The position numbers and the translations under genes are program-made. Below the pieces are notes generated by a model. That model had not been told where the DNA came from, made no database searches, and worked only from the letters and a program-made list of their open reading frames with translations. Shown piece after piece: positions 3,660-21,175 of a DNA stretch of 32,000 nt (its first letter is position 1; every line of letters begins with the position of its first letter). This stretch comes from an uncultured bacterium (GTDB lineage Bacteria; Zhuqueibacterota; QNDG01; DTFT01): the NCBI GenBank assembly GCA_963736115.1, contig CAVTNR010000001.1, forward strand, positions 79,091-111,090, in the 5' to 3' direction.

Positions 3660-3844
3660 GACCTGTGCGCGCCCTTCGTCCGGGCGAGTTCGTCGGCCAC
3701 CGACGGAGCGGCGAGTATCGCCACAAGGAGAAGGATCGTCAGCCCCATGGCTTTCGTCCGGCTATTTTGTCCCATCGGAAGTTTGTTTCGGAAAATCCGC
3801 CTTGATCGCCGCATTTTCCCCTCTTTCCTTTTTTCTGGATACCG

Positions 3845-5427: not shown

Positions 5428-7444
5428 CTTCGAGTGTGTCTCCCAAGTCTTCCAGCTTCTCGCCGGTAATTCCGGAATTCAGGGCTGATATGAAATCGCT
5501 GAACGCCTTGAGTAGGTTTGTGTCCGTCTCCTGGAGCAGATGTTTCTGCGTCCGACGGACGATGGATTTGAACTGTTCCGGAACGGGGAGTGCGGGTTCC
5601 GGAATTCCTCCCGCGGCCGGTGCTCCCTGGGCAGGCTCGGGCTTTACCGGAGTGGTGGGGGAACCGGGAGAAGGCGTCGCCGGTCCCGGCGCTGGCTGTT
5701 GCGGCTGGGATCCGGGTACGGCTCCAGGCTGCGGGGGAGGGGTGAAGCCGCCCGGACCGGATGGACCCGGCTGCGGGGGGACCTGGACACTGCCGTGGGC
5801 ATATAGACCGAGCAGTGTGTTTCGCTTCTGGATCAAGGCGGCGTCTCCCCCGATGCCCGTCTTCTGCTCGAATTTCATTTCATACTGCTTCCCGGTCTGC
5901 ACGTGGAAGACCACCATGGTCAGGAGTCCGTTGACGTCGAGCTTGAAAGTCACTTCGAACTTGTGAAATCCTTCCGGCTTGGGATCGACGTTCTCGATGG
6001 TGAGCTCGCCGATCGGTGTGTTCTCGAAAACAAACTCGCCTTCTCCCTGAAATACAACCGCTTTGATCCGCGTCGCATTCTCCTGATTGCCGAATATGTC
6101 GTTCTTCACTTCGATTGGGATGTTGCTGCCTTGAGCGATCATCCGCACGCACCTACCGCCCGCGACGCCGACCCCGAGCGAATGCTCCGTGATCAGGCGG
6201 ATCTGCTGGTCGTCCACGGACTGGGCGTTCAATTTCAACGATTCATTCCGGCGCTTGATGTCGAATTCGCCCTCGGTGGGAGCGAATCGCTTTGCCAGTA
6301 TCGCCGCGCCCCGGGCGACCACGGTGTCCGGATTGAGTTCGCTTTTGACGAAGCTGTCATCCTTCTTGAAATAATCGAGGAGCATTTCCTTGACCTTGGG
6401 GATTTTGCTAGAGCCGCCGACCAGGAGAATCGCATCCACCTGGTCCCGGTCGATCCCTTTCTGCTCCCGGGCGTTGCTGATGGCCTTGTCGACGTAAGTG
6501 AGGGACTTGCGAAGGAGTCCGTCGATCAGCGACAGAAAGACATCTTTCGTCAGGACCAGCTGGAGCTCGTGTTTAATTGATTCGAGCGACATCGTCGCGG
6601 ATTCGTTGTAACTCAAGGCGATTTTGGCCGGTTCCGAGACCGATTTGATCTTCGCCTTCGCCAGAGGGTCCGCGCCTACATCGATTCCCTGTTTGCGGAG
6701 CTCTTCGACCGCCCATTCCACGATGGCATTGTCGAAATCCCCACCGCCGAGACGCGGATCGCCGGCCGTCGCGATGACGTTCAGATTGCCCGTTTCAACC
6801 TGGATGATGGACACGTCAAAGGTTCCGCCCCCGAGATCGTACACGAGATAGGTTTTTTTCTCCGTCTCCTCCCGGTCCACTCCGTAGCAGATGGCCGCGG
6901 CTGTCGGTTCCGGGATGATCTGCCTCGGGTACAGCCCGGCGAGCAGGGCGGCTTCTTCAGTCGCTTTCTTCTGCGGCTCCATGAAGTAGGCGGGCACGGT
7001 CACCACCGCGTCGTGGATTTCCTCCCCGATCTCCCGCTCGGCCACTTCTTTCATCTTCATCAGGATGAACGCACTGATTTCCTGGGGCAGCATCCATTCC
7101 CCTGCAAAAAACACTTCCACAGGTTGTCCGATCTTGCGGGCGTTCTGGGCCCGGAATCGTTCCAGGGCGTTGTTTTTCTCTGAGAACAGCTCGCCCATTT
7201 CCCGCTTGATTTCTATCACGGTGTCCTCGGGGCGGACGGGGCAATTTCGCTTGGCAGCAGCGCCCACGATGACCTTGCGGAGCATCTGGTCCGTGCTGAC
7301 GACCGAAGGGGTCGTTTCGGGATTGGTGTCCGATTCGGGGTTCTTGATGATTTCAGCCTGTTCAGTATAGGTATTATAAGAAGCCACGGCCGAATACGTC
7401 GTACCGAGATCGATACCGATCACCTTGTGCATTTTGTCGTTCAT
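5402..7444 (-). CDS. Atypical Hsp70/DnaK-family ATPase: complete NBD and beta-sandwich SBD, with the helical lid replaced by a Pro-rich linker and a short helical tail
   Basis: [33 protein letters not shown] and [13 protein letters not shown] are Hsp70 actin-fold signatures. [10 protein letters not shown]...[13 protein letters not shown] is the SBD-beta. The ~70-aa [11 protein letters not shown]...PEPALPVPE linker follows. ATGA overlap with the upstream GrpE-like ORF at 7441-7444. Confidence 0.95.
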
Positions 7445-7800
7445 GATTTTGCTCCTTGACTGGTGTGTGCGGCGCTGTCCTTGTGCGAACGGTTTTTATC
7501 ACGGTCCGAAACCGGACGGGTCTTCCCGATAATGACCCGGCAGGGCCTAACCAGAACCTGGCCCGCCCTGTACCCGGATTGTTCGACCCGGATCACCTTT
7601 CCCTCATCACCTTCGCCGTACCCGAGGCATTCCATGGTCAGAGGATCGAAATCAGCCCCGGGCTGAACCTCGAAAGGGGTATAACGGAGGGCCTGGGTGA
7701 TGCCGGTGAGAAGATCGAGTATGGAGTCCGTATTTTTCAGGAACTCCTTCTCGTTTTCGCTGCCTGAGTAATGACGTTTCATCGACTTCAGGGATTCCAT
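7441..7800 (-). CDS. GrpE-like nucleotide-exchange factor, C-terminal (beta-domain) part; frame is open upstream of the listed start
   Basis: DFDPLTMECLGYGEGDEGKVIRVEQSGYRAGQVLVRPCRVIIGK matches the GrpE pattern FDPxxHEA...V..GY...G.VLRPA.V.V. Upstream in the same frame the sequence reads DRKEFIGRSTFNALIPAMESLKSM, which is like the GrpE LLPVLDNLERAL helix. Confidence 0.75.
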   Translation of the reverse strand: MESLKSMKRHYSGSENEKEFLKNTDSILDLLTGITQALRYTPFEVQPGADFDPLTMECLGYGEGDEGKVIRVEQSGYRAGQVLVRPCRVIIGKTRPVSDRDKNRSHKDSAAHTSQGAKS

Positions 7801-8260
7801 GGCCGGGATCAGCGCGTTGAAAGTCGAACGTCCGATGAATTCCTTGCGGTCTGAAACGCAGGTTCTCCTTGAACCGTTCCAGCTCCATGCCGACCGAACG
7901 GGAGAGGGACTCCTGGGCGGCCTGAAGCGACGAAACGGTTGCGATGACCTGCGTTATTTTACCTTCCAGATTGGAAACCATCCGGTAGAGGCCGACCATG
8001 TCTTCGGCCAGTTCTCCCAGGGTTTGGAGCAGGTCATCATTCTTACCGTCGCGGATTCCCGCCCCCTTGAAAAAATCGACCGTGAGGGTCTGTTTGGACA
8101 GATCCAGATCGATCGGTTCCTCACTCCCTGCGGCGCCCACCGGGTTCTGCCCGACGGCGGTTTTCGATTCCTTCCTGGGGGAGGTCCCGCTGGCCGATCC
8201 GCCGGATGGTTCGTTGTGCGGAATGTCCGGCTGATCCGCACTGGGCTTTGTTTTGTTCAT
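7652..8260 (-). CDS. GrpE-like protein, N-terminal disordered and coiled-coil part; overlaps 7441..7800 by 149 nt in another frame (probable frameshift)
   Basis: ATGA overlap with the stop of the J-like gene at 8257-8260. A disordered Ser/Gly/Pro N-terminus is followed by the coiled coil LQAAQESLSRSVGMELERFKENLRFR, resembling the GrpE xxFxNxRKR helix. After that the frame reads Arg/Pro/His-rich nonsense. Confidence 0.6.
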   Translation of the reverse strand: MNKTKPSADQPDIPHNEPSGGSASGTSPRKESKTAVGQNPVGAAGSEEPIDLDLSKQTLTVDFFKGAGIRDGKNDDLLQTLGELAEDMVGLYRMVSNLEGKITQVIATVSSLQAAQESLSRSVGMELERFKENLRFRPQGIHRTFDFQRADPGHGIPEVDETSLLRQRKREGVPEKYGLHTRSSHRHHPGPPLYPFRGSARG

Positions 8261-8877
8261 GGTTCCTCCTCGTCGATCCGCTTGTTGTATTCAAAATCCG
8301 TGTTGAAAATCCTCCGGGTCAGGTCGCTGGGATGAAAGCAGTGGAGATTTTTGATTTCTTCGAAAAAACGGGAGAGTTCCTTGCGGATATAGATCAGCTT
8401 TGTCCGGTAACCGCTCAACACGTCCGCCCGGAAATCCTCGAAGCGGAGCAGGATGCAGGGAGGGTTAGACAGGTCGTACTTTCGTCGATCCTCTCCTTTC
8501 TCCAGCAAGATCAGGTTGATCTCGTTCACTTCTTTGTCGATGCGCAGGATGTCGGATTCGATTTTTTTGAAATCGGGATCGGCCTTAAGGGCTTCCTTCT
8601 CCAGATCGAAGATTTCCCCGTTCAGTTTTTTCAGGGCCGCGGGATCGGATTTTTCGGAGTTTTTCTTCATGGTGTCCAGCCGGCTTCTGGCGGATGGAAG
8701 ACCGGGGACGGCCTCGAAGATCTTGGCCTGCCGCGTGACAAGCGCCTGTCTTTGAGCATTCAGAGACTGCAAAAATTCTCCCTTGGCGTCCATGATTTCA
8801 TTTGCGGTCGCGTCCGGGGTTAGTCCCAGTTTGGCGTAGGAAGTGTTTCGGCTGAGGATCACGGGGTAATTGAACAT
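8257..8877 (-). CDS. J-like co-chaperone candidate with a split J-domain and DPD in place of HPD (tentative)
   Basis: 206-aa ORF with AGGGAGA upstream of the ATG at 8877. The N-terminal SYAKLGLTPDATANEIMDAKGEF resembles J-domain helix I/II. KEALKADPDFKKIESDILRIDKEVNEINLILLEKGEDRRKYD aligns by eye to KLALKYHPDKN...FKEINEAYEVLSDPEKRxxYD. It is the first gene of the Hsp70 operon. Confidence 0.55.
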   Translation of the reverse strand: MFNYPVILSRNTSYAKLGLTPDATANEIMDAKGEFLQSLNAQRQALVTRQAKIFEAVPGLPSARSRLDTMKKNSEKSDPAALKKLNGEIFDLEKEALKADPDFKKIESDILRIDKEVNEINLILLEKGEDRRKYDLSNPPCILLRFEDFRADVLSGYRTKLIYIRKELSRFFEEIKNLHCFHPSDLTRRIFNTDFEYNKRIDEEEP

Positions 8878-9094
8878 AAGACACCTGATCTCCCTGTGAA
8901 TGGACGACTTGTCGTTGTTTTCGATGATGGGGTTCGATAAGGAGATGGAAAGGAGGCGTTATCTGTCGGCCATCCCATAGGCATGAATAAAAAAAGGAAT
9001 GGCCCACCGCTGACTCGGAATTTGCAGCGTTGGAAATCCTCACTCCCTCCCCAGAATAATGGTTTTCGAAAAAACGAAAAGAAGAGCCCGACAA

Positions 9095-9345
9095 ATCTCT
9101 ATAAATAAATAATAATAAAACGATGAGTATACAGGTATAGGAATAATGTTTGCAAAATATTGATTATTTGTTTGAAAATCAAGAAGAATGTCCGGCATTT
9201 CGACATTAAAAGGCATAATATCCAGAATATATAATCATATAGAGTTTGAAAGCGAGCGGGATTCCGCTGTCGCCAAAATGTAAACAATTATAATTAAACA
9301 GATTACGAAACAACAGAAAGATATTCCTCATTCTGTGTCCGCAGG
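9095..9345. other. AT-rich island (~250 bp) between the two minus-strand operons; likely the promoter/regulatory region for the Hsp70 operon
   Basis: Runs such as ataaataaataataataaaacgatgagtatacaggtataggaataatgtttgcaaaatattgattatttgtttgaaaatc contrast sharply with the GC-rich flanks. No credible ORF lies here (only a 62-aa Phe/Ile/Leu-rich ORF). It sits 220-470 nt upstream of the ATG at 8877. Confidence 0.6.
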
Positions 9346-9436
9346 GGTGGTTCTGGCATTTTTCCAAATTACTATCAATAGTAACGACATCTGAAGAAGA
9401 GGAAATAATCCAGGCGTTTGAAATCAGCCCACGGTT

Positions 9437-10570
9437 TTATTTCAATTCCACGATCTCCCGCACCACCGCCTCGGCCGCTTTCTCCAGGGGCCCGGCGGCC
9501 GTTCTTACGGACGGGTCCTGCGCCAGGGTTTCCCCGACTTTTTCCAGCCTGCTGAAATTCCCGAAAATGATTTTGTAAAGGGGTACCTTCGACCCGTAAT
9601 TTCCCCAGTCCACCTCGGTCTTCATGAACCGGCTGAACGAACCGGAAAGACGGATGAACAGGCTTAAAGCCTTCTTGGGCAGTTCGTTCAGTACGACACC
9701 GTCCAGATCCCTCACTTTCGACAGAAATTCGCGGATGGCCGGTTGCGGATAGACCTCCTCGAAGAACCGGATGAAACGGGCGCTCGTCACGCCGCGGAGC
9801 TCGCACAAATTTCCGCTCAGGCATAGATAGAGAAGTTCGATGGCCTGGTGGAAAACCGGAAGATCAAGGTGTTTCGCCGTCAGAATTCCGGGGCGCTGGT
9901 CGTCGTGCCAGGCGGCTTGAAAGACGGTTTTGCCGACGTCGAGCACGAAATCGTCCACTTCCCGTTCCGTGGCGGCGGTCCCGGATTCGGCGAGCAGTTC
10001 TCCCGCGCCTTCCCGGAACCGGGAGAGGCGGAGAAAATACTGCTCGTGGCCGGCGGACATCAGCCGGATGAACCGGTCGTCGATCATGGGATAGCCCGGA
10101 CTGACGTAGAGATCCTCGACGATCAGGCTGTATTCCGCCCAGAAATCCTCATGGACCCGGCACAGGTAGTAGACGGGCATATCGTGCGGAGTCAGTCGGA
10201 TGTCCAGGTAGACCCGGTAATTGCATGCGTCCCGGATGCACGACTGCAGACCTTCCTGATTCGTGAGGCGGACGGAATGATCGCCGTAAGGCGACCGGAT
10301 TGTGACTTCGCGCGTGAGGGTCTCCGAGATGTCGGACAGGATCCGGCTGGATCCTCCCGCGTTTTCGAGGGTGAGACGATGGGCGTCGTAAGTCCGGATG
10401 GCCTCGAGAAGCGGGGCCAGGATCGATCGGGGGTCCATGTCCCAGGTCGAATGACCCGGCACGTACCCGTAACGGCTGTGCGAGGTCGATCCTTCCTCGA
10501 AATCTCCGTCCCGCGTCCGGTCGGAGCCGGTAGCAACGGCGCCTTCGGTGTCCCAGTATTCATCGGTCAT
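9437..10570 (-). CDS. Hypothetical 377-aa protein, last gene of the ClpB-like/MoxR/vWA operon; no motif recognised
   Basis: The ATG at 10570 is preceded by GGGGAG and overlaps the vWA gene stop by 11 nt. Composition is non-repetitive and typical of coding sequence. Confidence 0.7.
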   Translation of the reverse strand: MTDEYWDTEGAVATGSDRTRDGDFEEGSTSHSRYGYVPGHSTWDMDPRSILAPLLEAIRTYDAHRLTLENAGGSSRILSDISETLTREVTIRSPYGDHSVRLTNQEGLQSCIRDACNYRVYLDIRLTPHDMPVYYLCRVHEDFWAEYSLIVEDLYVSPGYPMIDDRFIRLMSAGHEQYFLRLSRFREGAGELLAESGTAATEREVDDFVLDVGKTVFQAAWHDDQRPGILTAKHLDLPVFHQAIELLYLCLSGNLCELRGVTSARFIRFFEEVYPQPAIREFLSKVRDLDGVVLNELPKKALSLFIRLSGSFSRFMKTEVDWGNYGSKVPLYKIIFGNFSRLEKVGETLAQDPSVRTAAGPLEKAAEAVVREIVELK

Positions 10571-12710
10571 GTTTCGACTCCCCGTTTTTCGTTACCGAAC
10601 GGTTGCGTTCCCGGATGCAGGAGGCCACGTATCGGCCGATTTTCCGCGCCACCGCGGCCGCGTCGTTGAGCTCGTCGGGAAGCACGGGAATAATTTTATC
10701 CACTTGTTTTTCCAGCCCGGTTTCCCGATCGATCCCAAGCGCGACCATGGTGGTGTGCAGTTTCCCGTTTGATTCCGCGTTCAAGGACTCGAATACGGCC
10801 TGCACTTCCACTATCCCGGACTTGGAATTCTGGAAGGACCGGTTCCATTGGCAGTCGGTGATTAAAATCAGGTACATCATGCGTCCGCGGGCGAGGGCTT
10901 TGGCCTCGCGCATGATGAAGGCAATGGAGACAGCGTCTGACTGAACGCCGGTTCCGGTATCCGGGAGTCCGGGCAGCGCCCGGAGCGCGTCCTGCTTGTA
11001 CAGCACGGGCGTTTTCTTCGGATGGTAAATCCACTGAACCAGGGGGCCCGTCATGCCCGGCCGGACCTCTCCGCTGTGGTACAGGCCGGCAAGAAGCTGA
11101 ATTTCGCTCCGGGACGTGGATTTCAGCCAGGCCGCGGTCAGGAGTTTCAGCATGTGCATCTGACGGCTGTTCAGCGATCCCGATCCGTCACAGGCGATGG
11201 CCAGCACCGGCCGGCCGCGACGGTCCGCCCTTTCCCGCATGCGGTACCGTTTAAACACGGCCGCCGAAAAATCCGCCAGGGACAGCCGTGCGGTGTCCAG
11301 TGCCCCGGATGTGCGCAAACGGTCCGTTTCGGGAAGCTTCTGCACGTTCGGATAGAGGCTTCGGCGCAGAGCTTCAGTGACGGGGAGGGCTTCCTCCAGC
11401 AGCTTTTGACAGGCGGACATGTCCTCTGAAAGCGGCACCGGTCGGTCGAATATCTCGGCAGTGGTGGTCTTGCCGTCAGCCAGGGGCACTTCGATCTGGC
11501 GTCCGTCGGACGGGCTGCCCTCCATCAGGCCGCCGTCGAAGATTTTAAAATGAAGCATCCGCTCGACCAGATCGGACCTGATGTCCTCCCAGGACCGTTG
11601 ACGGATTCCGGCAGCGCGCAGGGTCATGATGAATTTGACGAGCGCGGTTTCCTCCTGGTCGGTCCGTCCCAGGGGATCCTCCTTGGTCCCGGACAGGAGG
11701 TTGTTGACCATTACCATGGTCAACCGTTCGACGATACTGTCCGGATCGATCAGCAGGGGCGGTGTGAGCCGTTCCAGCGGATGGAGTTCCGATTCCCCGG
11801 AAGGCTCGCCGGCTTCCACGTCAAATACTTCGTCTAGTACGTCGAGGGCCTCAGGGTGTCCGGGTTTAGCCGAGTTGAGGAACTGAGACCGTTCCGGATT
11901 TATTTTCCGGGGAGCCTTTACCATCGGCGCGAGCGCCTTGACCAGGTCGCGGCCCCACTGGTTCCCCAGTTCCAGGAGGAATCCCGGTTCCGTCCGGTTC
12001 AGTGCCTCGATATAGGGGCGAGACGTCAAGACGGTCTTTTCCAGCATCATAGCCGTGACAGGATGCAGTTCCAGCCGCCTGAAATCGGGCAGAAGCTCCC
12101 CGTAGAGCACGCCGTTGAAAACCACGTCGATCACGGTGCGGAACCGGAGATCCTGCTGAGACGCCATGAAGAGACGGTAGATCTCGAGCGCGGAGAAGGC
12201 GGGATCGGACGACAGTTCCTGGAGCAGGATCCGGATGCGAATGGCCTTCTCGATGATTTTCACCAGAAGGAGCCGGTTTTGACCATCCGTCTCGGTGCCT
12301 TCCGTCACCGTCTCATCTTCGAGCATGAGAATCAGGGAAATCACCTTTTCGCTGAAAACAGCTTCATATTCCAAATATCCGGTCAGTCCGATGGCGGCGT
12401 ACGCCGCCGCGACCGCCGGGTACTGCGTGTACAGGCAGCTGAGCTGGGGTTTCACGCAAAAGGGCGATTCGGGATCGGGATTCCGCCCGGCGAGCCTGTG
12501 AACCGCCGTCTGGATCTGGGTCATCCGGCGGTAGAAGAGGTTCTGGGCCGGGAGCCTCTCCGAGAGATCCATGTTTGGACGGAACGCATCCCCCAGGGTA
12601 ATTCCCGCCCAGTCCGATTTCGACTTGCGCTTCCGGTAATAGGAGGAATACCATCCGCGGGTCGAGTGATCATCGTCCCGGTTTGAAGCGTTTTTCCCGG
12701 CTGTTGTCAT
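10560..12710 (-). CDS. Large protein with a C-terminal von Willebrand factor A (vWA/MIDAS) domain; CbbO/NorD-like architecture
   Basis: 716 aa. MIDAS DxSxS motif in PVLAIACDGSGSLNS (about 11176-11190). Downstream TGTGVQSD and LILITDCQ fit the remaining MIDAS positions. Long helical N-terminal region. Lies immediately downstream of a MoxR-class ATPase gene. Confidence 0.85.
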   Translation of the reverse strand: MTTAGKNASNRDDDHSTRGWYSSYYRKRKSKSDWAGITLGDAFRPNMDLSERLPAQNLFYRRMTQIQTAVHRLAGRNPDPESPFCVKPQLSCLYTQYPAVAAAYAAIGLTGYLEYEAVFSEKVISLILMLEDETVTEGTETDGQNRLLLVKIIEKAIRIRILLQELSSDPAFSALEIYRLFMASQQDLRFRTVIDVVFNGVLYGELLPDFRRLELHPVTAMMLEKTVLTSRPYIEALNRTEPGFLLELGNQWGRDLVKALAPMVKAPRKINPERSQFLNSAKPGHPEALDVLDEVFDVEAGEPSGESELHPLERLTPPLLIDPDSIVERLTMVMVNNLLSGTKEDPLGRTDQEETALVKFIMTLRAAGIRQRSWEDIRSDLVERMLHFKIFDGGLMEGSPSDGRQIEVPLADGKTTTAEIFDRPVPLSEDMSACQKLLEEALPVTEALRRSLYPNVQKLPETDRLRTSGALDTARLSLADFSAAVFKRYRMRERADRRGRPVLAIACDGSGSLNSRQMHMLKLLTAAWLKSTSRSEIQLLAGLYHSGEVRPGMTGPLVQWIYHPKKTPVLYKQDALRALPGLPDTGTGVQSDAVSIAFIMREAKALARGRMMYLILITDCQWNRSFQNSKSGIVEVQAVFESLNAESNGKLHTTMVALGIDRETGLEKQVDKIIPVLPDELNDAAAVARKIGRYVASCIRERNRSVTKNGESKHDR

Positions 12711-12725
12711 GGCGTATCATCCCAC

Positions 12726-13739
12726 TTAAAAAAGGTTGCCCTGTATGGTCGTGGTTTCGTCTTCCTCCATCTTCAGACCGAAGACCTGGTTGAAAACGCT
12801 GTGGTTCAGCTTCCGGTCCTCCAGGCTGGCATTGCCCATCAGGGTGGTCTGGGTGATCTGCTGAAGGCTCAGGTGGGGCATGGCGCCGGCCATCCGCAGA
12901 AATGCCAGGTACCCGTAAATGGAAGGCGGCGGAACGGATTGAAGCCTCCCCTCGACACGGTGTTTTCGGATTTCCTGGCCCATCGCGACCACCTTGACGA
13001 TCAGGTCCCTTTTTAACTCCGACGCATGGGTCTCGCGGACCAGATGCTGGAGGACCAGAATCTCGAGATCGGCCGGAAGGTAGTCGAGCGTGATGTTCAT
13101 CGAGAACCGACGTTTCAAGGCGTCATCGAGAGTGACCAGAGTGTGGGTCGATTCGTTTTCCGCCTGGTAATTGCTGTCGGAGATCCATGTGATGAATTCA
13201 CCGCGGATGGTGTTGCCGTCGGGGAGCAGAATATGCCCCCGGGTCATCAGGTCGAGAAGGCCCCCCTGCACGCTCGAAGAATGAACCCGTCCCATCTCCC
13301 TCAGCCAGACCAGTGGGTAATTTGCGTCTGTGGACGCCTCCGCGTCCTTCAGGGATTCGACCAGTTTGCTCGGCTCGTCGTACGTGGTGCCCCCCTTGAG
13401 CGAACGCCGCTGGTACAATTCACCGGGCGTTTCGTAGACGGCCATTTCGACGGGATACACCTTCAGGAGTTTGACGGGAAGCCCGAGCCGGTTGCAGACA
13501 TGGCTGAAGTTTTCCGGCACCCGGTACAGCGCCTCGATCAGGGACGTTTTGGCACTGCCGGTCGGTCCGCTCAGATGGATGAATTCATGCGAGGCAATGC
13601 CGTACACGAGCGATTCCAGGATCCATTTCAGGATGAAAAGGGGATTGCCGCCGGGCGCGGGAAGCAATTCGATCAAATCCTCCGCGCCGGCCTTCCGGTA
13701 CGCTTTTTCCGCAGCGATGTGAAATACCTGTTTCGACAT
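12726..13739 (-). CDS. MoxR/CbbQ/NorQ-class (AAA_5-like) AAA+ ATPase with a non-canonical Walker B
   Basis: Perfect AAGGAGGA RBS 5 nt upstream of the ATG at 13739. Walker A is GPTGSAKT (13545-13568). LVWLREMGRV sits where hhhhDE is expected. GGLLDLMTRGHILLPDG and LDDALKRRF match the MoxR sensor/Arg regions. Confidence 0.85.
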   Translation of the reverse strand: MSKQVFHIAAEKAYRKAGAEDLIELLPAPGGNPLFILKWILESLVYGIASHEFIHLSGPTGSAKTSLIEALYRVPENFSHVCNRLGLPVKLLKVYPVEMAVYETPGELYQRRSLKGGTTYDEPSKLVESLKDAEASTDANYPLVWLREMGRVHSSSVQGGLLDLMTRGHILLPDGNTIRGEFITWISDSNYQAENESTHTLVTLDDALKRRFSMNITLDYLPADLEILVLQHLVRETHASELKRDLIVKVVAMGQEIRKHRVEGRLQSVPPPSIYGYLAFLRMAGAMPHLSLQQITQTTLMGNASLEDRKLNHSVFNQVFGLKMEEDETTTIQGNLF

Positions 13740-13756
13740 GGCGTCCTCCTTATTGT

Positions 13757-16024
13757 TCAGGCCGGCCGAAGGGTCAGCCGTTCGTCCGAATCCGCATCAA
13801 CGATCCAGACGGCTGAAGATCCGGCCCGGTTTTTTCTCAGGAATTCCATGAAAGCCTCCGCGGCCAGCGACCGCGCCTCCTCGATGATCGCGCGGGCCCC
13901 GAATGCGAGGACGTGTGTGTCCATCCGTCCAATCACCCGCGATCCGACCGAAGGTTCCACCCGGACTTCGTCTACGTTCATCCGCATCCGTGACGCGGCC
14001 GCCCAAATCGAAGCGCGTATGGCGCGTTCGACGATCAGAGCCAGGGCGGGTCCGTCCAGCGGCCGGAACAGGATGGGTGTCCCGATCCGGGATAGAAAAG
14101 CGCCGGAGAAAAGATCCCGGATTTCGGAAAGGACCGTGTTCCGGATCTCCCGGTCGGAGGTCTGATCCTGAAATCCGATGCGTTTCCGCACTCCCTCGTC
14201 CCTTCCATTGGGCAGATTGATGGTGAACGCGAAGACCAGGTTGGCGCATGAGAACATCGTGCCCGAGGCGCTCTGGCCTTCGCCGGTCTCCAGGATCTGC
14301 AGGAAGATATCCGCAATGGCGGAGCGGACTTGGGGTGGCGCATGATCCAGGTCGCTCACCTCGACGAGGGCTCCGGCGTGATGTTTGGCGGCTTGTTCCA
14401 GTCGTCCGCTCTGGTAGGAGCCCACGATACCGCGTCCCGAGCCGAGAAGCTGGGCCGAGGCTGTGTAGAAATCGGGTATACTCGCAGCATCGATGTTGAT
14501 GTAGGGAATGCCCAGTTCCCGCGCCACCAGGACGGCGCTCTGGGATTTTCCTGTGGCCGGCGTGCCCTGGGCGCAGTAGCGGATGGGCTGGTGATCCGGC
14601 CGGGTCAGGCATTCCATTCGTAACCTCGCCACCAGCTGGTCGATGGCGTCGTCCTGGGCCAGGATTTCGGTCTTCACGACATCCGCCAGGTCAGACCGGG
14701 TCAGCACGGCGTTCAGACGTTCCTGGACATGCTCCAGTCGTCCGCCGCGGGGGCGGTTGGGCAGACCTGAAAAAGTCTCGGACAGTTCATGTATATCCGT
14801 GGCGAAATCCCTGGCAGGTCGCGGAGGCGAGCCTCCGGCCTGAAGGATGTTCCATTCCCGCTGGACCAGCGCTGTCAGCACCCGGACCCGGCCCGAGGCC
14901 GGAAGGTCCGAGAGGGCCGACCGAATCCGGTCGAACAATCCGGATTTCAGCGCCGCCGGCACGCCGCCCGATTTCCAGCCGACCTGATCGATTGAAAACC
15001 GGATCATCGAATCCTCCGGGATGTCCGGGGCGTGGCGGATAACCGGCAACAGGGGATCACTCGTACCGCCCTGCCCGCCGTGGAACACCGATTGGAGTTG
15101 CGGATAGTTGCCCGTGAAAATGACCTGTTTCCCGGAGCCGGCCAAAAGTTGAAGCATGGTCTGCACTTCGTTGGCCATCTCGTAGGGATTGATTCCGAAA
15201 TTCAGGCATGCCGCGGGTACGGCCACAATGCCGGGAGCCTTGCCGGCCAGATCCACAAGTGTTTTTCCGTTCAGGGACGGCACCATCAGGCGTCCCACCG
15301 TTCCGCCGGCCGAGGAGAGATGCCGGGCCAGGTGGGCCAGAAGGTAATCCCCGGCGACCGGGTGCTGTATCGCGACGGCGATGGAGAGGGATCCGCTCAT
15401 GAAATCGATCACCTGCCCGCACCAGGCGTCGAGAACCGGGGCGAAGGCGTCATCCGATTCCTTTCCCGGAAGGATGCATTCCAATATTTCGGAAATGTTC
15501 TTGTACCGTTCCAGCAGATCCGAGTCCGCAAGATCCTCGGGCAATTCGTCCTGAAGCGCAATGGCGGCGGATTCAAGATTCTTCAGCTCCGAGAGGAATA
15601 CCCCGGAGCGTGTGGGCGTCATCGGGATCGCCTGAACCCGCATTTCGACCCACAGCGATGACTGACCGGAATCCGTCGTCTGGGCGGGAGGAATGAGGCG
15701 GACTTTATCGCCGAAACGGGACAGATGGGCGAACAGATTTTCGGCGGAGATCCGGACCGAGCGGGGCGCTTTCAGAAGTTCGAATTGTATTCCGAGGACC
15801 CCGTCTTCGACAAGCCGGCAGGTGATGGCGCTGAGACCCTTCCGTCGGTTTTTTTCGCCCGGTCCGGTCCGGAAGGATTTTCCATCCGGCGCGACCGCCA
15901 TTTCGATCGGAACAGCCTGACGGATCAGGCCGATGATCTGGTGAATGACGATGGCCGGATCCGGGCCGTCCGGGGTTTTGGAATTCCAGCTTGAGACGGT
16001 CGGCTGTTTGAATCCGGATGTCAT
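13757..16024 (-). CDS. ClpA/ClpB-like AAA+ protein: novel N-terminal region, degenerate D1-like ring, D2-type module with Walker A and ClpB_D2-small-like C-terminus
   Basis: The ORF track starts at a GTG (16054). The ATG at 16024 has AGGAGA 5 nt upstream, so it is the preferred start. D2 shows Walker A GTPATGKS (14542-14565), ALVEVSDLDHAPPQVRSAIADIFLQILETGE (compare [23 protein letters not shown]), ANLVFAFTINLP, and FLSRIGTPILFRPLD (compare FLNRIDEIIVFxPL). The segment GIVAVPAACLNFGINPYEMANEVQTMLQLLAGSGKQVIFTGNYPQLQSVF resembles Clp D1 but has no P-loop. Confidence 0.85.
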   Translation of the reverse strand: MTSGFKQPTVSSWNSKTPDGPDPAIVIHQIIGLIRQAVPIEMAVAPDGKSFRTGPGEKNRRKGLSAITCRLVEDGVLGIQFELLKAPRSVRISAENLFAHLSRFGDKVRLIPPAQTTDSGQSSLWVEMRVQAIPMTPTRSGVFLSELKNLESAAIALQDELPEDLADSDLLERYKNISEILECILPGKESDDAFAPVLDAWCGQVIDFMSGSLSIAVAIQHPVAGDYLLAHLARHLSSAGGTVGRLMVPSLNGKTLVDLAGKAPGIVAVPAACLNFGINPYEMANEVQTMLQLLAGSGKQVIFTGNYPQLQSVFHGGQGGTSDPLLPVIRHAPDIPEDSMIRFSIDQVGWKSGGVPAALKSGLFDRIRSALSDLPASGRVRVLTALVQREWNILQAGGSPPRPARDFATDIHELSETFSGLPNRPRGGRLEHVQERLNAVLTRSDLADVVKTEILAQDDAIDQLVARLRMECLTRPDHQPIRYCAQGTPATGKSQSAVLVARELGIPYINIDAASIPDFYTASAQLLGSGRGIVGSYQSGRLEQAAKHHAGALVEVSDLDHAPPQVRSAIADIFLQILETGEGQSASGTMFSCANLVFAFTINLPNGRDEGVRKRIGFQDQTSDREIRNTVLSEIRDLFSGAFLSRIGTPILFRPLDGPALALIVERAIRASIWAAASRMRMNVDEVRVEPSVGSRVIGRMDTHVLAFGARAIIEEARSLAAEAFMEFLRKNRAGSSAVWIVDADSDERLTLRPA

Positions 16025-16077
16025 ACGTTCTCCTGTTCTGGGTGATCCAGCCACCCGATCCGGATAAGGACAAAAAA

Positions 16078-16095
16078 AAGGCCAGTTTTATAATG
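16078..16095 (-). promoter_or_regulatory. Weak sigma-54-like -24/-12 element upstream of the ClpB-like/MoxR/vWA operon
   Basis: The minus strand reads cTGGCCtttttTTGTcc. GG and G are correctly spaced against TGGCAC-N5-TTGC, but the invariant C of the -12 GC is a T. It lies about 55-70 nt upstream of the ATG at 16024 and next to a divergent sigma-54-activator-type gene. Confidence 0.2.
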
Positions 16096-16172: not shown

Positions 16173-16231
16173 GTAAATAATACCGCGTGCAGATCAACTG
16201 CCGGACCCAAACACCACCCCGCGGGAGGATC

Positions 16232-17887
16232 ATGGAATACCAGGCCCTGCGATTCGAAGACCCGGACCGTCCGACATGCTGTACCCTCAGCGCGGAGACC
16301 GCCGAAGACATCCTTGAAATCAGGAAGGGTCGTCTTCCCGTTGTTTATCTGCTCGCGGACGACGCCATCGACCGCTTCACCGGATACCCCGCCCTGATCC
16401 GCGACCGCGGAACCAAGCACAAGAAAAAATCCCTGTCCGACCTGCTTCTCGGTTACGACCGAATCTGCATGATCCGGGGCTCCTATGAAGGAATCCGCCA
16501 GCTGATCCGGAGCTGTAACGATCTCCTGAAGAACGCCCGGGTTCAGGCGGATCAGAACGCGTTCCTCATTTTCATTCCCGACGGTCCCTTCATCCGTCTG
16601 TGGAATCGAACCAGCGGGAGCGGAACGCGCGCAAGGGACACGGGCAGATCCCTCGATCCCGGGACCCGGTCCGAGCTTCCCGGGATGCTTCCGATCCAGG
16701 AGGTTCCCCCGGAACTAAACGAAAGCTATCTGGGCCATTCGGAAGATGTTCGGCTGGTCCGGCAGTTGATCCTCGTCGCGGCCCGCTGTGAGAATCCGAT
16801 TCTGATCCTGGGCGAATCCGGAACGGGCAAAGAGATCGCGGCCCGGAGCATACACCAGTTGAGCCTCCGGCGTAATCTCCGGTTTGAGGCGGTCAACTGC
16901 GGCGCACTTCCCACAAACCTGCTCGAATCCATTCTGTTTGGACACAAGAAGGGCGCATTCACCGATGCCAAACGGGACAAAAAGGGTTCCTGGGAACTGG
17001 CGGGAAAGGGGACGCTTTTTCTGGATGAGATCGGCGACCTGTCGCTGGAGAATCAGGTTAAAATTCTGCGCGTTCTCTCCTCCGGCCGGATTCGCCCGCT
17101 CGGCGCTGACGAGGATGTCGCCGTCCATGCGCATGTCATTGCCGCGACGAACCGGGATTTGTTTTCGATGGTACAGGCAGGACAGTTCCGGGAGGACCTG
17201 TATTACCGGCTGCGGTCTTTCCTGATTTTCACTCCTGCCCTGAGAAACCACCCCGACGACATTCCGCTGATGGCGCAAAGTTTTTGGAAGAAAATCACAC
17301 GAGACGATTCGGCCCGCCTTCCGGCCTCCGTGCTGACCGAGATGAAGGCATACCCCTGGTACGGGAACGGCCGGGAGATGAAGAACCTGCTCTCACTGCT
17401 GTACGGTCTTTTCGGAAGGGTTCCGCTAGGCGTGGAACATTTCAGGGCGGTTTACCGGTATCAGCGGAATGACGCGCGTCCACGGAAGGGCGCTCCGGAC
17501 GGGAATGATCTCTCGATGCACCGGGCCGAGTGCCTCCAGCACCTGAAACGGACGGATGAGGTCCTGCGGGAGGTGCAGATGGCCGTTCAGCCGCATCTCA
17601 AGAAAACGAGCCGGACTCCGGCCGACACGCGGACGACCGTTGCCCTGATCGAAAACCGGATTTACGAGCTCGAGACCCTGTGTCTCCATCCCGTTCTTTT
17701 CGTCCATCCGGAGCTGTATCAGCGGATCCGCGATTTAAGCGCGGAACTGGTCGGTCTGGTCCGGCATTTGAGAAAATCGAGCGGTGCGGTGAAGGCATAC
17801 TGGGCCAAACATCTGGATGGCCCTTGTCAGGAAACCCAGCGAATGGTCTTCCGGGAAGTCGGGAAGCTCATGCGGACTCGGAAATAA
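16232..17887 (+). CDS. Sigma-54-interaction-domain AAA+ regulator (bEBP-like) with an unknown N-terminal sensor region, GAFTDA loop variant and no recognisable C-terminal HTH
   Basis: The ATG at 16232 has GGGAGG 4 nt upstream (the track start 16187 is a less likely upstream extension). Signatures: ILILGESGTGKEIAARSIH (Walker A), GTLFLDEIGDL (Walker B), GAFTDA at 16952-16969, REDLYYRL. The last ~150 aa show no Fis-type HTH pattern. Confidence 0.9.
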   Translation: MEYQALRFEDPDRPTCCTLSAETAEDILEIRKGRLPVVYLLADDAIDRFTGYPALIRDRGTKHKKKSLSDLLLGYDRICMIRGSYEGIRQLIRSCNDLLKNARVQADQNAFLIFIPDGPFIRLWNRTSGSGTRARDTGRSLDPGTRSELPGMLPIQEVPPELNESYLGHSEDVRLVRQLILVAARCENPILILGESGTGKEIAARSIHQLSLRRNLRFEAVNCGALPTNLLESILFGHKKGAFTDAKRDKKGSWELAGKGTLFLDEIGDLSLENQVKILRVLSSGRIRPLGADEDVAVHAHVIAATNRDLFSMVQAGQFREDLYYRLRSFLIFTPALRNHPDDIPLMAQSFWKKITRDDSARLPASVLTEMKAYPWYGNGREMKNLLSLLYGLFGRVPLGVEHFRAVYRYQRNDARPRKGAPDGNDLSMHRAECLQHLKRTDEVLREVQMAVQPHLKKTSRTPADTRTTVALIENRIYELETLCLHPVLFVHPELYQRIRDLSAELVGLVRHLRKSSGAVKAYWAKHLDGPCQETQRMVFREVGKLMRTRK

Positions 17888-17911: not shown

Positions 17912-18352
17912 ATGAATTCGATACGACCGTTCTCGCTCTCCATTAAAGGCCTTATTTTCAACGCCGATGGGCGCTGCCTGATTCTGAAACGATCGACGCT
18001 GAACAGAAATTACCCGGAGAAGTGGGAGCTTCCGGGCGGGAAACTGAATCCCGGTGAGTCGTTCGCTGACGCGTTGTGCCGGGAGGTTTCGGAGGAAACC
18101 GGCCTGCATATCGAGATCGACCATCTGGCGGGCGCGGTGGAATCGGAGCTCCCCGATTGGAGAATCGTGCATCTGGTCATGACCGCCCACACGATACCGG
18201 GTGAAATCCGGCTGAGTTCGGAACACACGGATTACGCCTGGGTGGCGATAGACGATTTGGCGGAGTTGGATATGCCGGAACACTTCCTCCGGTTCATCCA
18301 TGAGTACCGTAGAAAGGAGGGACTCCATGCCGGTGCGTCGCGGCCTCGTTAA
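17912..18352 (+). CDS. NUDIX hydrolase
   Basis: The Nudix box GX5EX7REUXEEXGU is present as GGKLNPGESFADALCREVSEETGL. 146 aa. It starts 24 nt after the regulator gene and overlaps the start of the next gene. Confidence 0.9.
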   Translation: MNSIRPFSLSIKGLIFNADGRCLILKRSTLNRNYPEKWELPGGKLNPGESFADALCREVSEETGLHIEIDHLAGAVESELPDWRIVHLVMTAHTIPGEIRLSSEHTDYAWVAIDDLAELDMPEHFLRFIHEYRRKEGLHAGASRPR

Positions 18353-20834
18353 ACAGCAGATCGGAAAATACAGCCAGGAGTACAGGCATTACGAAGTGTA
18401 TTCACAGGTTCTAAGGAAAATACTGGAAGCGGCATGCCGGCAGGCCGCTCCGCTGGCCATCGTGCAAACCCGCGCGAAAACCGTCTCGAGCTTCGCGGAG
18501 AAAATTATCCGCAAGCCGACCGCGGACCCGGTCCATGATTTTACGGATCTTTGCGGGGCCCGGGTGATCACGAACACCAAAACTGAAGTCGATCGGTTGT
18601 GCGGGTTCATCCGTGCGAATTTCAATATCGATGAGCAGAACAGCCAGGATACTTTCGAACGGCTGAAAACGGCGGAATTCGGTTATCTGTCCGTCCATTA
18701 CATCGTGCAGATCGACAGGAAGGAGATTCTCGGCATCCCCATTCCGGAATCGATCGGCGCGAGAAAGGCGGAAATTCAGGTCCGGACCCTGCTTCAGCAT
18801 GCCTGGGCGAATATGAGCCATGACCTGATCTACAAGAACCGTTTCGAAGTACCCAGGCGATGGACCCGAAGCCTGGCGCGCACTTCGGCCCTGCTGGAAC
18901 AGGCCGACGGTGTATTCGACGAGGTGCTCGGGGAACTCGATGCATACCGGCTCCATTACGGCATCTTGTCCGAACATTCCAAGAGGGACGAGGAACTGAA
19001 GAATCTCGAATTGATTCTCGAGAATGAACCGGTCGAATCGCACAAGCCCGCAATCGCGCTCCGGATCGCCCGGCTGCACAAGACCGGCTGGAACTGGGAG
19101 GGGATCATTGACCGGCTGGGACCGTTCTCCGCCCGGAAATGCGGCGAGAGGCCGGAGATTCTCATGGAGTACGGCTATGCCATTTGCAGGAAAAACAAGG
19201 ACAATCCCGGCGGCAGGGTTTATCTGAAAGGCCAGAAGCTTCTCGCGGAAGCGGCGGAATCGGGTGCGGGTGAGAATCACAGCGATGCGATATGCCATTA
19301 CGCATGGTCTTATGAGAACATCAAGGGTCGCGAGCAGAAGGCCCGGAAACTGTACCGGCAGGCCCTCGACGCGGATCCGAAAGATCCCTATGCGCTCGCT
19401 TCCTTTCTGGAGTTTGAATTATTCTGCAGCCGTGACGACCGGTTCATACCGTACATGAAACCGACTTTGCTGCAGGCCGTCGAAACCTGCCGGGCCCACG
19501 TCAGGGCCGGGATGGAACTCCCGTGGGCCTTTTTCACCATGGGTAAAATGCATCTGCTCCTGGGCCAGCCGTATGAAAGTCTCGCGGCGGTCGCGACCGC
19601 CATACACGTCTGCCTGGGAACCGCGACCTGCGTGCCGCGGGACGTTTTTCAGGAGCAGCGGAATTTCCTGCGGCGCATCAATACCGGAAGGGAGTGGCCG
19701 CCCGCGCATCGGTGGGTCGATAAGACGCTGATGCTTGCGGAAGCCATTCGATCGCCGGACGGCCGTGCCCTGCGCCAGTTGAAGGAAATGCGGAGGAGGC
19801 AAAAATCCTTTGCCGGACCGGTCGTTATCGTGGCGGGCGGCGCGGATTCATCCGTCCAGGGGAAAATGGCGGAATACCGTCTGCCGTTGATGCAATCCTT
19901 CGACGGTTTTTCCGGCACGGTCGTTTCCGGGGGCACCCGGGCCGGGATTCCGGGACTGGTCGGAGAAATGGCGCGAAAAGTTTCAGGTCGGAAAAGCGGA
20001 GGGCTGTTTGCATTGGCCTATCTTCCCGGTAAAATGCCGACCGGTGTCCAGATCGATCCGCGTTATCATGAAACCGTCATTCTGGAAGGAGACGATTTCA
20101 CCCCGGACCAGCCTATTCAGAACTGGATCGACATGATCGCGTCGGGCATCAAACCTTCCGAAGTGAGGGTGCTGGGCATTAACGGGGGAAGGATTGCCGC
20201 TTTCGAGTACCGCCTGGCCCTCGCGCTCGGCGCCCGCGTGGGAATCGTACAGTCCAGCGGAAGAGCCGAATTGGATTTGCTGAAGGAAGCCAGATCTACC
20301 GCGATAAAAAATCTGGTGTGGCTTCCCGCGGACGCCATGACCCTTCGGGCGTTCGTCAATCCGGGCCTGACAGTGATGTCGCCCGGCCATCTGGAAAGCG
20401 CGGGCAAAGCCATTCATACCGCTTTTTTGGTTGAGAACCGGCATCGAATCGTCGATCGGGCCATGCTCCCGTGGGAGGAATTGCCCGAGGACCTGAAGGA
20501 GTCCAATCGGAGCCAGGCGGCCTATTCCGTTCAAATTCTCAAGGCGGTCGGTTATGGTGTCCGAAAAGCCGCTTCGTCCCGCGTCTCCATTCGGTTCACA
20601 CGCAGTGAAATTGAAACCATGGCCGAGATGGAGCACGGCCGCTGGGTTGTTGAAAGGCTGGGAAGCGGGTGGAAATATGGTGAAAAAAGGGACCCGGTGA
20701 ACCGAATTAGTCCCCACCTGGTGCCGTGGAAAGAACTCGCGGACAAGTTCAAGGGATATGACCGCATCGCCGTGTGCAAATGGCCGGCTCTGCTGAAGGA
20801 TGCGGGATTGGAGATTTATCGACAGAAACGATAA
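18327..20834 (+). CDS. Multidomain RelA/SpoT-type nucleotide pyrophosphokinase (alarmone-synthetase fold) - TPR - SLOG (TRPM/LSDAT-like) - tandem RyR-domain protein
   Basis: The ATG at 18327 has AGGAGG 6 nt upstream (the track start 18300 is in frame, 9 codons earlier). RSH motifs: RAKTVSSFAEKIIRK, DLCGARVIT, FGYLSVHYIV, AEIQVRTLLQHAWANMSHD. TPR-like region at about 18990-19710. SLOG at about 19810-20340: VVIVAGGADSS, VVSGGTRAGIPGLVGE, VLGINGGRIAAFEYRLALALGARVGIVQSSGRAELDLL. RyR at about 20400-20820: MLPWEELPEDLKESNR and MEHGRWVVERLGSGWKYGEKRDPVNRISPHLVPWKELADKFKGYDR. Confidence 0.85.
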   Translation: MPVRRGLVKQQIGKYSQEYRHYEVYSQVLRKILEAACRQAAPLAIVQTRAKTVSSFAEKIIRKPTADPVHDFTDLCGARVITNTKTEVDRLCGFIRANFNIDEQNSQDTFERLKTAEFGYLSVHYIVQIDRKEILGIPIPESIGARKAEIQVRTLLQHAWANMSHDLIYKNRFEVPRRWTRSLARTSALLEQADGVFDEVLGELDAYRLHYGILSEHSKRDEELKNLELILENEPVESHKPAIALRIARLHKTGWNWEGIIDRLGPFSARKCGERPEILMEYGYAICRKNKDNPGGRVYLKGQKLLAEAAESGAGENHSDAICHYAWSYENIKGREQKARKLYRQALDADPKDPYALASFLEFELFCSRDDRFIPYMKPTLLQAVETCRAHVRAGMELPWAFFTMGKMHLLLGQPYESLAAVATAIHVCLGTATCVPRDVFQEQRNFLRRINTGREWPPAHRWVDKTLMLAEAIRSPDGRALRQLKEMRRRQKSFAGPVVIVAGGADSSVQGKMAEYRLPLMQSFDGFSGTVVSGGTRAGIPGLVGEMARKVSGRKSGGLFALAYLPGKMPTGVQIDPRYHETVILEGDDFTPDQPIQNWIDMIASGIKPSEVRVLGINGGRIAAFEYRLALALGARVGIVQSSGRAELDLLKEARSTAIKNLVWLPADAMTLRAFVNPGLTVMSPGHLESAGKAIHTAFLVENRHRIVDRAMLPWEELPEDLKESNRSQAAYSVQILKAVGYGVRKAASSRVSIRFTRSEIETMAEMEHGRWVVERLGSGWKYGEKRDPVNRISPHLVPWKELADKFKGYDRIAVCKWPALLKDAGLEIYRQKR

Positions 20835-21122: not shown

Positions 21123-21175
21123 TTATGGATAGCTTCGGAAAACTCTTCCTTCCGTCCAGAATTCGGGAGGTTCCC

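Follow-up and report, generated by a model that had tools for sequence, protein, structure and literature searches.

A conserved operon of ClpA-like, MoxR-like, vWA and family-specific proteins with a divergent sigma-54 activator in an uncultured Zhuqueibacterota bacterium

The operon, its activator and their conservation

We analysed a stretch of 32,000 nucleotides (the window) from an uncultured bacterium of the Zhuqueibacterota (GenBank assembly GCA_963736115.1, contig CAVTNR010000001.1, positions 79,091 to 111,090). The table of open reading frames (ORFs) and the junction sequences place four co-directional genes on the minus strand between positions 16024 and 9437. They are here termed genes 1 to 4 and encode a ClpA-like AAA+ protein, a MoxR-like AAA+ protein, a protein with a C-terminal von Willebrand factor A (vWA) domain and a family-specific protein (Table 1). 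The gene for a sigma-54 activator (a bacterial enhancer-binding protein, bEBP) is transcribed divergently from gene 1. Genes 1 and 2 are joined by a TGA stop codon, 17 nucleotides containing the ribosome binding site AAGGAGGA, and an ATG, and genes 2 and 3 by a TAA, 15 nucleotides and an ATG. Genes 3 and 4 overlap by 11 nucleotides, with GGGGAG located 5' of the gene 4 ATG, and gene 4 is translationally coupled to gene 3. The junctions agree with an earlier account of this DNA (the sequence-only reading), which had described four tightly coupled genes with these gaps, this overlap and a ribosome binding site in the first gap. An alternative start codon for gene 1, the GTG at position 16054, lies upstream of the ATG and was considered less likely. 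No convincing intrinsic terminator was found 3' of gene 4.

Across at least eight phyla, 42 other loci, all distinct, had the same four-gene order. Thirty-six of these came from a scan of 185,579 species, each represented by one genome, and six from contig look-ups. Among loci with enough sequence, the MoxR-like gene and the vWA gene were each present in 37 of 37 and the Clp-like gene in 31 of 32, being missing in locus L038. Such an arrangement is far beyond chance, and the earlier view that the quartet forms an operon was borne out by its co-occurrence. The hosts belong to the Thermodesulfobacteriota/Desulfobacterales, Acidobacteriota, Nitrospirota, Brocadiia, Lentisphaerae, Anaerolineales, Cytophagia, Myxococcales and other Pseudomonadota. 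Among the Desulfobacterales loci is that of AP021876.1, a record under the name of Desulfosarcina ovata subsp. sediminis, which has the four-gene operon without a close homologue of the activator. The module is rare yet widely scattered among bacteria.

A close homologue of the sigma-54 activator (more than 200 bits) was found in 19 of the 30 loci with room for it, and in 16 it was located upstream of the operon and divergent. More distant sigma-54 activator matches were found in six further loci. The activator, which the sequence-only reading had left out of its gene list, belongs to the module and is co-inherited with the ClpA-like, MoxR-like, vWA and gene 4 proteins. Its AAA+ core, which has a GAFTDA loop, is flanked by a family-specific N-terminal domain and a helical C-terminal domain, each of about 130 residues, and the protein is conserved over its full length at about 40% identity. 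Neither terminal domain had a relative in Pfam or the PDB. The C-terminal domain carries a conserved and private motif, LHRxECLRHLRR, and no recognisable HTH_8 or Fis-type helix-turn-helix (HTH) was seen in it.

The candidate -24/-12 promoter of the window, TGGCCTTTTTTTTGTC, is a weak match to the sigma-54 consensus, yet its position is conserved and common to L004, the closest relative of the locus. Most other loci have strong TGGCA[CT]-N5-xTGC sites 55-80 nucleotides 5' of gene 1. A score of at least 13 out of 15 for a sigma-54 site was reached by 14 of 23 upstream regions, compared to about 3% of random 330-nucleotide windows. The sigma-54 consensus was not enriched in the window alone, and the promoter call is therefore based on conservation across loci. 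The operon is probably transcribed from a promoter of this -24/-12 type.

In L038, a distant locus from the Pseudomonadota, a Clp-like gene is missing, and at positions 5170-11020 the activator gene is directly followed by homologues of the MoxR-like gene, the vWA gene and gene 4. The smallest unit that is conserved may thus be the triad of MoxR-like, vWA and gene 4 proteins together with the activator. In L046, a metagenome contig, the MoxR-like gene at positions 6848-7869 was called as two ORFs of 217 and 123 codons, likely because of a frameshift.

Table 1. Coordinates in the window of the genes, domains and sites discussed in the text
Feature	Position	Strand	Remarks
Gene 1, ClpA-like AAA+ protein	16024..13757	minus	755 aa counted from the ATG; AGGAG 8 nt 5' of the ATG
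Gene 1, N-terminal alpha/beta domain	15545..15958	minus	residues ~23-160; family-specific
Gene 1, degenerate D1-like AAA+ module with helical lid	14780..15442	minus	residues ~195-415
Gene 1, D2 module	13820..14707	minus	residues ~440-735
Gene 1, D2 Walker A GTPATGKS	14543-14566	minus	residues 487-494
Gene 1, D2 Walker B S557-D558	14351-14356	minus	falls on ClpA D564-E565 in the HMMER alignment
Gene 1, candidate ClpP-docking tripeptide I616-G617-F618	14171..14179	minus	aligned to ClpA I617-G618-L619 and ClpC VGF
Gene 2, MoxR-like AAA+ protein	13739..12726	minus	337 aa
Gene 3, vWA protein	12710..10560	minus	716 aa
Gene 3, vWA domain	about 10611-11228	minus	
Gene 3, MIDAS motif DGSGS	11175-11189	minus	within ACDGSGSL (DxSxS)
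Gene 4, family-specific protein	10570..9437	minus	377 aa
Candidate sigma-54 (-24/-12) promoter TGGCCTTTTTTTTGTC	16069..16084	minus	45-60 nt 5' of the gene 1 ATG
Sigma-54 activator (bEBP)	16187..17887	plus	566 aa; divergent; Pfam Sigma54_activat 2.5e-59
RelA_SpoT-TPR-SLOG(LSDAT_prok)-RyR protein	18300..20834	plus	844 aa; domains from Pfam; non-core, often associated
Repeat protein	21125-25990 and beyond	plus	1621 aa
Spacer between gene 4 and the Hsp70 operon	8878-9436		AT-rich
Hsp70 operon, atypical	1761-8877	minus	
Hsp70 operon, first protein	8257-8877	minus	206 aa
Hsp70 operon, GrpE-like gene	7441-8260	minus	two overlapping ORFs
Hsp70 operon, Hsp70	5402-7444	minus	680 aa; Pro-rich tail

The encoded proteins

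Gene 1 belongs to a family of proteins of about 750 residues that are annotated merely as 'AAA family ATPase'. Residues 454-681 matched Pfam AAA_2 with 31 bits and NCBIfam ClpA with 67 bits. Pfam AAA_2 matched 48 of the 49 family members (best 5e-14), and the match to PF00004 was weaker. In a PDB profile search the matches were confined to the D2 modules of Clp and Hsp104 proteins, with no FtsH structure at E<0.1. The AlphaFold2 model (predicted local distance difference test, pLDDT, 83.6) was aligned by Foldseek over about 630 columns with ClpA, ClpC and ClpB chains holding both D1 and D2 (E about 1e-21).

The first AAA+ module lacks its nucleotide-binding motifs. QHPVAGDY stands in the place of the P-loop and VAVPAA in that of Walker B, and in all homologues both are non-motifs. 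The alpha/beta pattern of the model supports a D1 assignment, and since the Foldseek alignment extends across chains with D1 and D2, the degenerate first ring is real on the evidence of the predicted structure. The domain preceding it is ordered in the model as helix, four strands, helix, two strands, helix, and gave no match in Pfam or PDB sequence searches. By eye only, its topology recalls that of type III chaperones or YbjN. The model contains no long coiled coil, and gene 1 therefore has no M-domain. A D1-like segment without P-loop in a protein devoid of Clp N-domain and M-domain had been proposed before, and the model and the family alignment agree with this.

The D2 module of gene 1 carries, besides its Walker A motif, a sensor-1 residue (N603), an arginine finger (R646, within FLSRIGTPILFRPLD) and a GAR sensor-2 motif (residues 709-711). 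It deviates at two sites. The Walker B region has the family pattern E-V-[S/A/C]-D-L-D-H-A instead of D-E, and the pore loop is GIVG, not GYVG. Both deviations are constant across the family and a distant clade.

In Hsp100-ClpP complexes the tripeptide loops of ClpA and ClpC are the ClpP-docking loops, and ClpB and Hsp104 are without such a loop. At the homologous position the gene 1 family has the pattern [ILMFV]-G-[FY], with the glycine found in 49 of 49 members and the phenylalanine in 48, the remaining one having a tyrosine. The pLDDT is below 50 at residues 615-620, as expected of a flexible loop. Since the tripeptide is present in gene 1 and such a loop is missing from ClpB and Hsp104, gene 1 is ClpA/ClpC-like and not ClpB-like. 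The closest true ClpB was 24% identical over 36% of the length. A ClpB/Hsp104 disaggregase was considered as a match for gene 1 and rejected on the missing coiled-coil M-domain, the dead D1, the presence of the IGF loop and an NCBIfam ClpB score of 34 bits against a cut-off of 1232. The sequence-only reading had overlooked the tripeptide and called the module ClpB D2-type. The Clp D2 type stands, with GTPATGKS and FLSRIGTPILFRPLD both present, while the assignment to ClpB was given up because of the docking loop.

It had also been suggested that the client of the module may be the products of the Hsp70 operon. In such a case it would be a general disaggregase or remodeller working with or on the Hsp70-GrpE-J products in the way ClpB works with DnaK. 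In the window the Hsp70 operon does follow gene 4 on the same strand after an AT-rich spacer of 560 nucleotides, and it is present in L004 too. However, L004 was the only one of the 42 other loci where an Hsp70-GrpE operon adjoins the module. Gene 1 is moreover without the M-domain that couples ClpB to DnaK, has an isoleucine for the pore-loop tyrosine and a non-canonical Walker B site, and carries a ClpP-docking tripeptide that ClpB does not have. The suggestion is largely refuted by the co-occurrence data, and we consider it very improbable. As its gene order was kept in L004 only, the Hsp70 operon is taken to be a system separate from the four-gene operon.

The spacer probably holds the Hsp70 operon's own promoter. 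Several sigma-70-like promoter matches were found inside it (10 in the scanned 7.5 kb compared to 3.1 expected), and the GC content was 0.49 in the 9-10 kb bin. The remaining products of the Hsp70 operon have 189, 397 and 632 residues, and the largest of them contains TPR repeats and a hydrophobic segment. The GrpE-like gene is split over two ORFs, 8260..7652 and 7800..7441, which overlap but are read in different frames, and of which the second matches Pfam GrpE. In L004 it is one continuous ORF (11978-12868). The split represents either a frameshift, a sequencing error or a pseudogene.

Gene 2 encodes a divergent AAA+ protein of the MoxR/CobS class. It matched Pfam AAA_5 with 23.4 bits (cut-off 22), and the family profile matched CobS (1.4e-8) and the MoxR structure 2R44 (8e-7) in the PDB, in agreement with the class proposed earlier. 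When gene 2 was aligned with Escherichia coli RavA by hhalign (E=1.2e-4), P-loop, Walker B and sensor-1 fell on their counterparts, and a test of membership in the MoxR AAA+ group (AAA_5, helix-2-insert clade) found Walker A, sensor-1 and the arginine finger in register. The P-loop is GPTGSAKT and conforms to the pattern G-x-x-G-[ST]-A-K-[ST] (GPTG[ST]AK[ST] or GETGTAKT) found in all homologues. The Walker B region is LVWLRE, where the aspartate is changed to arginine (LIWL[R/P/C]E in the family), and the sensor-2 arginine is lacking in the family, which has PPP[ST]I in place of SPR.

The sequence-only reading had pictured a machine of three ATPase modules. This is too simple, as gene 1 has a dead D1 ring and [S/A/C]-D for its D2 Walker B, and the MoxR-like protein is without Walker B aspartate and sensor-2 arginine. 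The unusual Walker B sites (S-D in D2 and R/P-E in the MoxR-like protein) suggest that nucleotides are turned over slowly, in the manner of a switch and not of a processive motor.

Gene 3 encodes a conserved N-terminal region of about 480 residues followed by a divergent vWA domain. The residues of the metal ion-dependent adhesion site (MIDAS), D508, S510, S512, T587 and D619, were invariant or nearly so among 53 homologues. In an hhalign comparison to E. coli ViaA (E=0.0089), which covered 177 columns, the three MIDAS elements were all aligned with their counterparts. Gene 3 gave no significant match in Pfam, NCBIfam, PADLOC or the PDB profile search, and when the homologues were compared to Pfam one by one, only sub-threshold vWA matches were obtained, in three members. 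The vWA assignment is therefore based on the MIDAS residues and the ViaA alignment, and it agrees with the C-terminal vWA domain read earlier.

More than 160 homologues of gene 4 were found, all annotated 'hypothetical' and most from metagenomes. An exhaustive search of 1.84 billion representative proteins with a gene 4 hidden Markov model (HMM) returned 263 clusters, all of them standalone proteins of about 330-440 residues, with nothing outside the family itself and no fusions. Gene 4 had no match in Pfam, NCBIfam, PADLOC or PHROGs, and the gene 4 profile had none in the PDB. The AlphaFold2 model is confident (pLDDT 90.4, predicted template modelling score 0.85) and shows about 40 disordered residues at the N-terminus, a beta-sheet domain (residues ~89-181) and a helical domain (residues ~183-374). 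Searched with Foldseek, it had no fold match in the BFVD library of viral structures and no significant match in the PDB, where the best was the zinc peptidase DPP III (E=0.027, template modelling (TM) score 0.24). The sequence-only reading had listed the 377-residue protein as an unknown one, which is supported here. The invariant polar residues, D62, R125, D153, R166, H175-E176, W221-H222-x-D224-Q225, E245, C250 and R259, suggest an active site or tight interfaces.

The main rival to the interpretation favoured below is that the module is a dedicated chaperone for maturation or cofactor insertion with gene 4 as its client, serving a stress or metabolic response and not immunity. The MoxR-like and vWA proteins would insert a metal into gene 4 or remodel its active site, with the Clp-like protein in a supporting role in unfolding or quality control. 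Among proteins of solved structure, gene 2 is closest to the cobaltochelatase subunit CobS, whose partner CobT has a vWA domain, and to our knowledge all MoxR-vWA pairs of this size class that have been characterised are devoted to one client each. Gene 4 is strictly co-inherited with the module and coupled to gene 3, its slow divergence fits an enzyme, and its invariant H175-E176, H222, D224, E245, C250 and C256 could bind a metal. The only fold match of gene 4, weak as it is, was to a zinc peptidase; however, this match is not significant. Neither are metabolic genes conserved beside the module, where the recurrent neighbours are immune or signalling genes, and a ClpP-docking loop is left unexplained by such a role. 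We find this rival doubtful on balance. It could coexist with a role in conflict.

Genes in the neighbourhood

Neighbouring genes were identified by iterative searches within 10 kb of the module, and the counts are raw counts over 43 loci. Homologues of TIR, DUF4062, STAND or CHAT proteins were found in 22 loci, homologues of RyR, RelA or SLOG proteins in 15, and either type in 32. A preprint (bioRxiv 10.64898/2026.05.01.722283) reports DUF4062 to be a TIR-like NADase in defence against phages. Neighbours annotated by Pfam were NACHT and HEAT proteins in D. ovata, and TIR and STAND-WD40 proteins in a Myxococcales locus. Single further loci had DUF4062-STAND-WD40/TPR proteins together with a second MoxR-VWA pair; PIN-MazE, TPR-CHAT and TIR-DUF4384 proteins; two DUF4062-NACHT proteins; and RelA_SpoT-RyR, NUDIX, TIR-NB-ARC-WD40 and TIR proteins. 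In the metagenomic locus L045 a radical SAM gene (2435-3757) is located between the activator and the Clp-like gene, and a large TIR protein is encoded as well. No radical SAM gene was found at the module in the other loci. The sequence-only reading had named an invader component as a possible client, and this idea is compatible with these neighbourhoods.

In the window the gene following the activator encodes the 844-residue protein with RelA_SpoT, TPR, SLOG and RyR domains. Its N-terminal part matched the PADLOC candidate PDC-S33 (E=9.8e-18), and its relatives near the module were either full-length or RyR-only, for instance TrkA_N-RyR. The module could be a partner of RyR-domain signalling proteins. 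A RelA_SpoT-TPR-SLOG-RyR or TrkA_N-RyR protein would then make or sense a nucleotide signal, with the activator or the AAA+ proteins as its readers. Alternatively, the module would remodel the RyR protein as its client. The RyR family is the only recurrent neighbour besides the activator, and the 15 loci with homologues represent different phyla, orientations and fused domains. It is, however, absent from most loci with long flanks, such as L003, L042, L043 and L044, and we regard a partnership of this kind as improbable.

Further to the right, a protein with many repeats carrying a WDFGDG motif, PKD-like by eye, is encoded from position 21125 onwards. Rightward of roughly 22 kb the GC content is about 0.65, compared to about 0.57 before, which marks a compositional boundary right of the locus.

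Relation to known systems and possible function

No named system with this gene set was found in the literature beyond the MoxR-vWA ternary conflict systems, which are a computational prediction only (Kaur, Burroughs, Iyer and Aravind, 2020; eLife 9:e52696; PMC7159879), and no experimental follow-up of that class was found. In their 'FtsH' ternary class the third component has two AAA+ domains, the N-terminal one inactive, and a private N-terminal domain; the vWA protein is highly divergent, and a standalone effector (NEFF1) or a radical SAM gene is present (PMC7159879). The MoxR P-loop variant GXXXTAKS occurs in the FtsH-type and beta-propeller ternary systems (PMC7159879). We judged the likeness of our module to this class from the published description and not from the accession lists.

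The module resembles the 'FtsH' class in having a MoxR/vWA gene pair and a conserved third protein with two AAA+ domains, the first without P-loop and Walker B, preceded by a private N-terminal domain. The gene 2 P-loop fits GXXXTAKS. The divergent vWA domain with its large N-terminal region may correspond to the simple type of the class, where the vWA is fused to a large all-alpha N-terminal domain. Both have a standalone uncharacterised gene, and a radical SAM gene is present here in one locus (L045). Deltaproteobacteria, Myxococcales and planctomycetes are hosts of both, with TIR, STAND and caspase-like genes in the surroundings. The Walker B of our family is [S/A/C]-D, whereas the FtsH of Kaur et al. 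is described as fully active. A ClpP-docking-type IGF loop is present here, and neither sigma-54 nor RyR appears in the main text of that paper. Four of the six defining features of the class were present or compatible. Since the feature of a fully active FtsH type was not found (Clp D2 type, non-canonical Walker B), we have filed the module as a variant of the 'FtsH' ternary kind and not as a proven member. The set of Kaur et al. probably does include this family.

Other known systems share parts of the module. ClpA/ClpC-ClpP with the adaptors ClpS and MecA has the same two-tier Hsp100 fold of D1 and D2 with an HCLR-type D2, and Walker A, sensor-1, arginine finger and GAR sensor-2 are found in the D2 of both. 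An [I/V]-G-[L/F] loop occupies the homologous site, an M-domain of the ClpB type is missing, and an N-terminal domain that could hold an adaptor is present. In contrast to ClpA and ClpC, gene 1 has a D1 without nucleotide-binding motifs, an N-terminal domain unrelated to the Clp N-domain, the pore loop GIVG and the Walker B S-D, and it is encoded with MoxR and vWA proteins and not with ClpP or ClpS. The single-client chaperones CobS/CobT, NorQ/NorD, CbbQ/CbbO, CoxD/CoxE and RavA/ViaA likewise have a MoxR gene of about 330 codons beside a larger gene with a C-terminal vWA/MIDAS domain, and resemble the module in the matches of gene 2 to CobS and 2R44 and of the gene 3 MIDAS to ViaA. They differ in that here no client gene (CobN, NO reductase, RuBisCO or CO dehydrogenase) is nearby, gene 2 lacks the Walker B aspartate and sensor-2 arginine, the pair is accompanied by a Clp-like AAA+ protein and a private fourth protein, and control is probably by sigma-54. 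As had been noted before, RuBisCO and NO reductase genes were found neither in the window nor in the annotated loci. PspF-psp and RtcR-rtcBA also combine a divergent sigma-54 activator, with a private sensor domain, and a small dedicated operon, and the AAA+ core of our activator matches PADLOC models of the RtcR/PspF type. Its N-terminal domain is, however, not a CARF or other known sensor domain, no Fis-type HTH is recognisable and the cargo genes are unrelated.

Based on these comparisons we tentatively favour the interpretation that the module is an inducible, possibly ClpP-coupled, conflict-type MoxR-vWA ternary remodelling switch that acts in conflict or stress response, and would put its chances slightly below even. 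An inducible remodelling or proteolysis switch is preferred to a helper of Hsp70 because the operon usually has its own sigma-54 activator and often lies near immune-type genes. In such a switch an unspecified cue would be sensed by the private N-terminal domain of the activator, which would turn the operon on. The MoxR-like ring and the vWA protein would form a chaperone/co-chaperone pair similar to CobS/CobT, NorQ/NorD, CbbQ/CbbO and RavA/ViaA, with the intact MIDAS gripping an acidic residue or a peptide of a partner. The ClpA-like protein would form hexamers by means of the D2 ring, a dedicated partner may find a platform in the dead D1 ring and the private N-terminal domain, and the conserved I-G-F loop may dock the ClpP of the cell. 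The output would be a specific protein that is selectively unfolded and degraded, or activated by unfolding. Gene 4 would be the private partner, as effector, adaptor or client.

Several observations weigh against this interpretation. Gene 4 is conserved at 40-50% identity and is not variable between loci, and such slow divergence is unlike the fast-diversifying effectors and sensors that are typical of conflict systems. No homologue of gene 4 was found in plasmid and phage collections, and no effector domain (nuclease, protease or TIR) was recognisable inside the operon. Among the PADLOC-DB v2 system models, genes 1 and 2 gave weak matches only (E about 1e-3) and genes 3 and 4 none. The neighbour counts are raw and come from host taxa in which STAND and TIR genes abound anyway, and loci L003 and L001 have ordinary neighbours. 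The docking of ClpP by gene 1 is inferred from a single tripeptide, and there is no clpP gene within the window. The non-canonical Walker B sites could imply that ATPase activity is low or absent. L038 shows that the triad does not strictly require a Clp-like protein. Pfam, the PDB profile and Foldseek all assign the active module of gene 1 to the ClpA/ClpC D2 (HCLR) type, and not to the type that names the 'FtsH' class. Finally, a literature search found no experimental study of any of the four proteins.

It is also conceivable, if unlikely, that the module is a so far unrecognised inducible ClpP-dependent proteolytic switch with an immune or abortive-infection use across phyla. Here the MoxR-vWA pair would select or prime a target, the ClpA-like protein, its first ring dead and its nucleotide sites slow in turnover, would feed it to the housekeeping ClpP, gene 4 would be a private adaptor or effector of new fold, and the sigma-54 activator would contribute a new sensor domain.

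MoxR-vWA pairs are widespread, and the client is known for merely a handful of them. A compact five-gene module with a sigma-54 regulatory handle is a tractable entry point to such pairs, and gene 4 offers a confident model without relative in the PDB and BFVD structure libraries. If the link to ClpP is true, it would join MoxR-vWA chaperones to regulated proteolysis and would represent a new adaptor logic for Hsp100 proteins.

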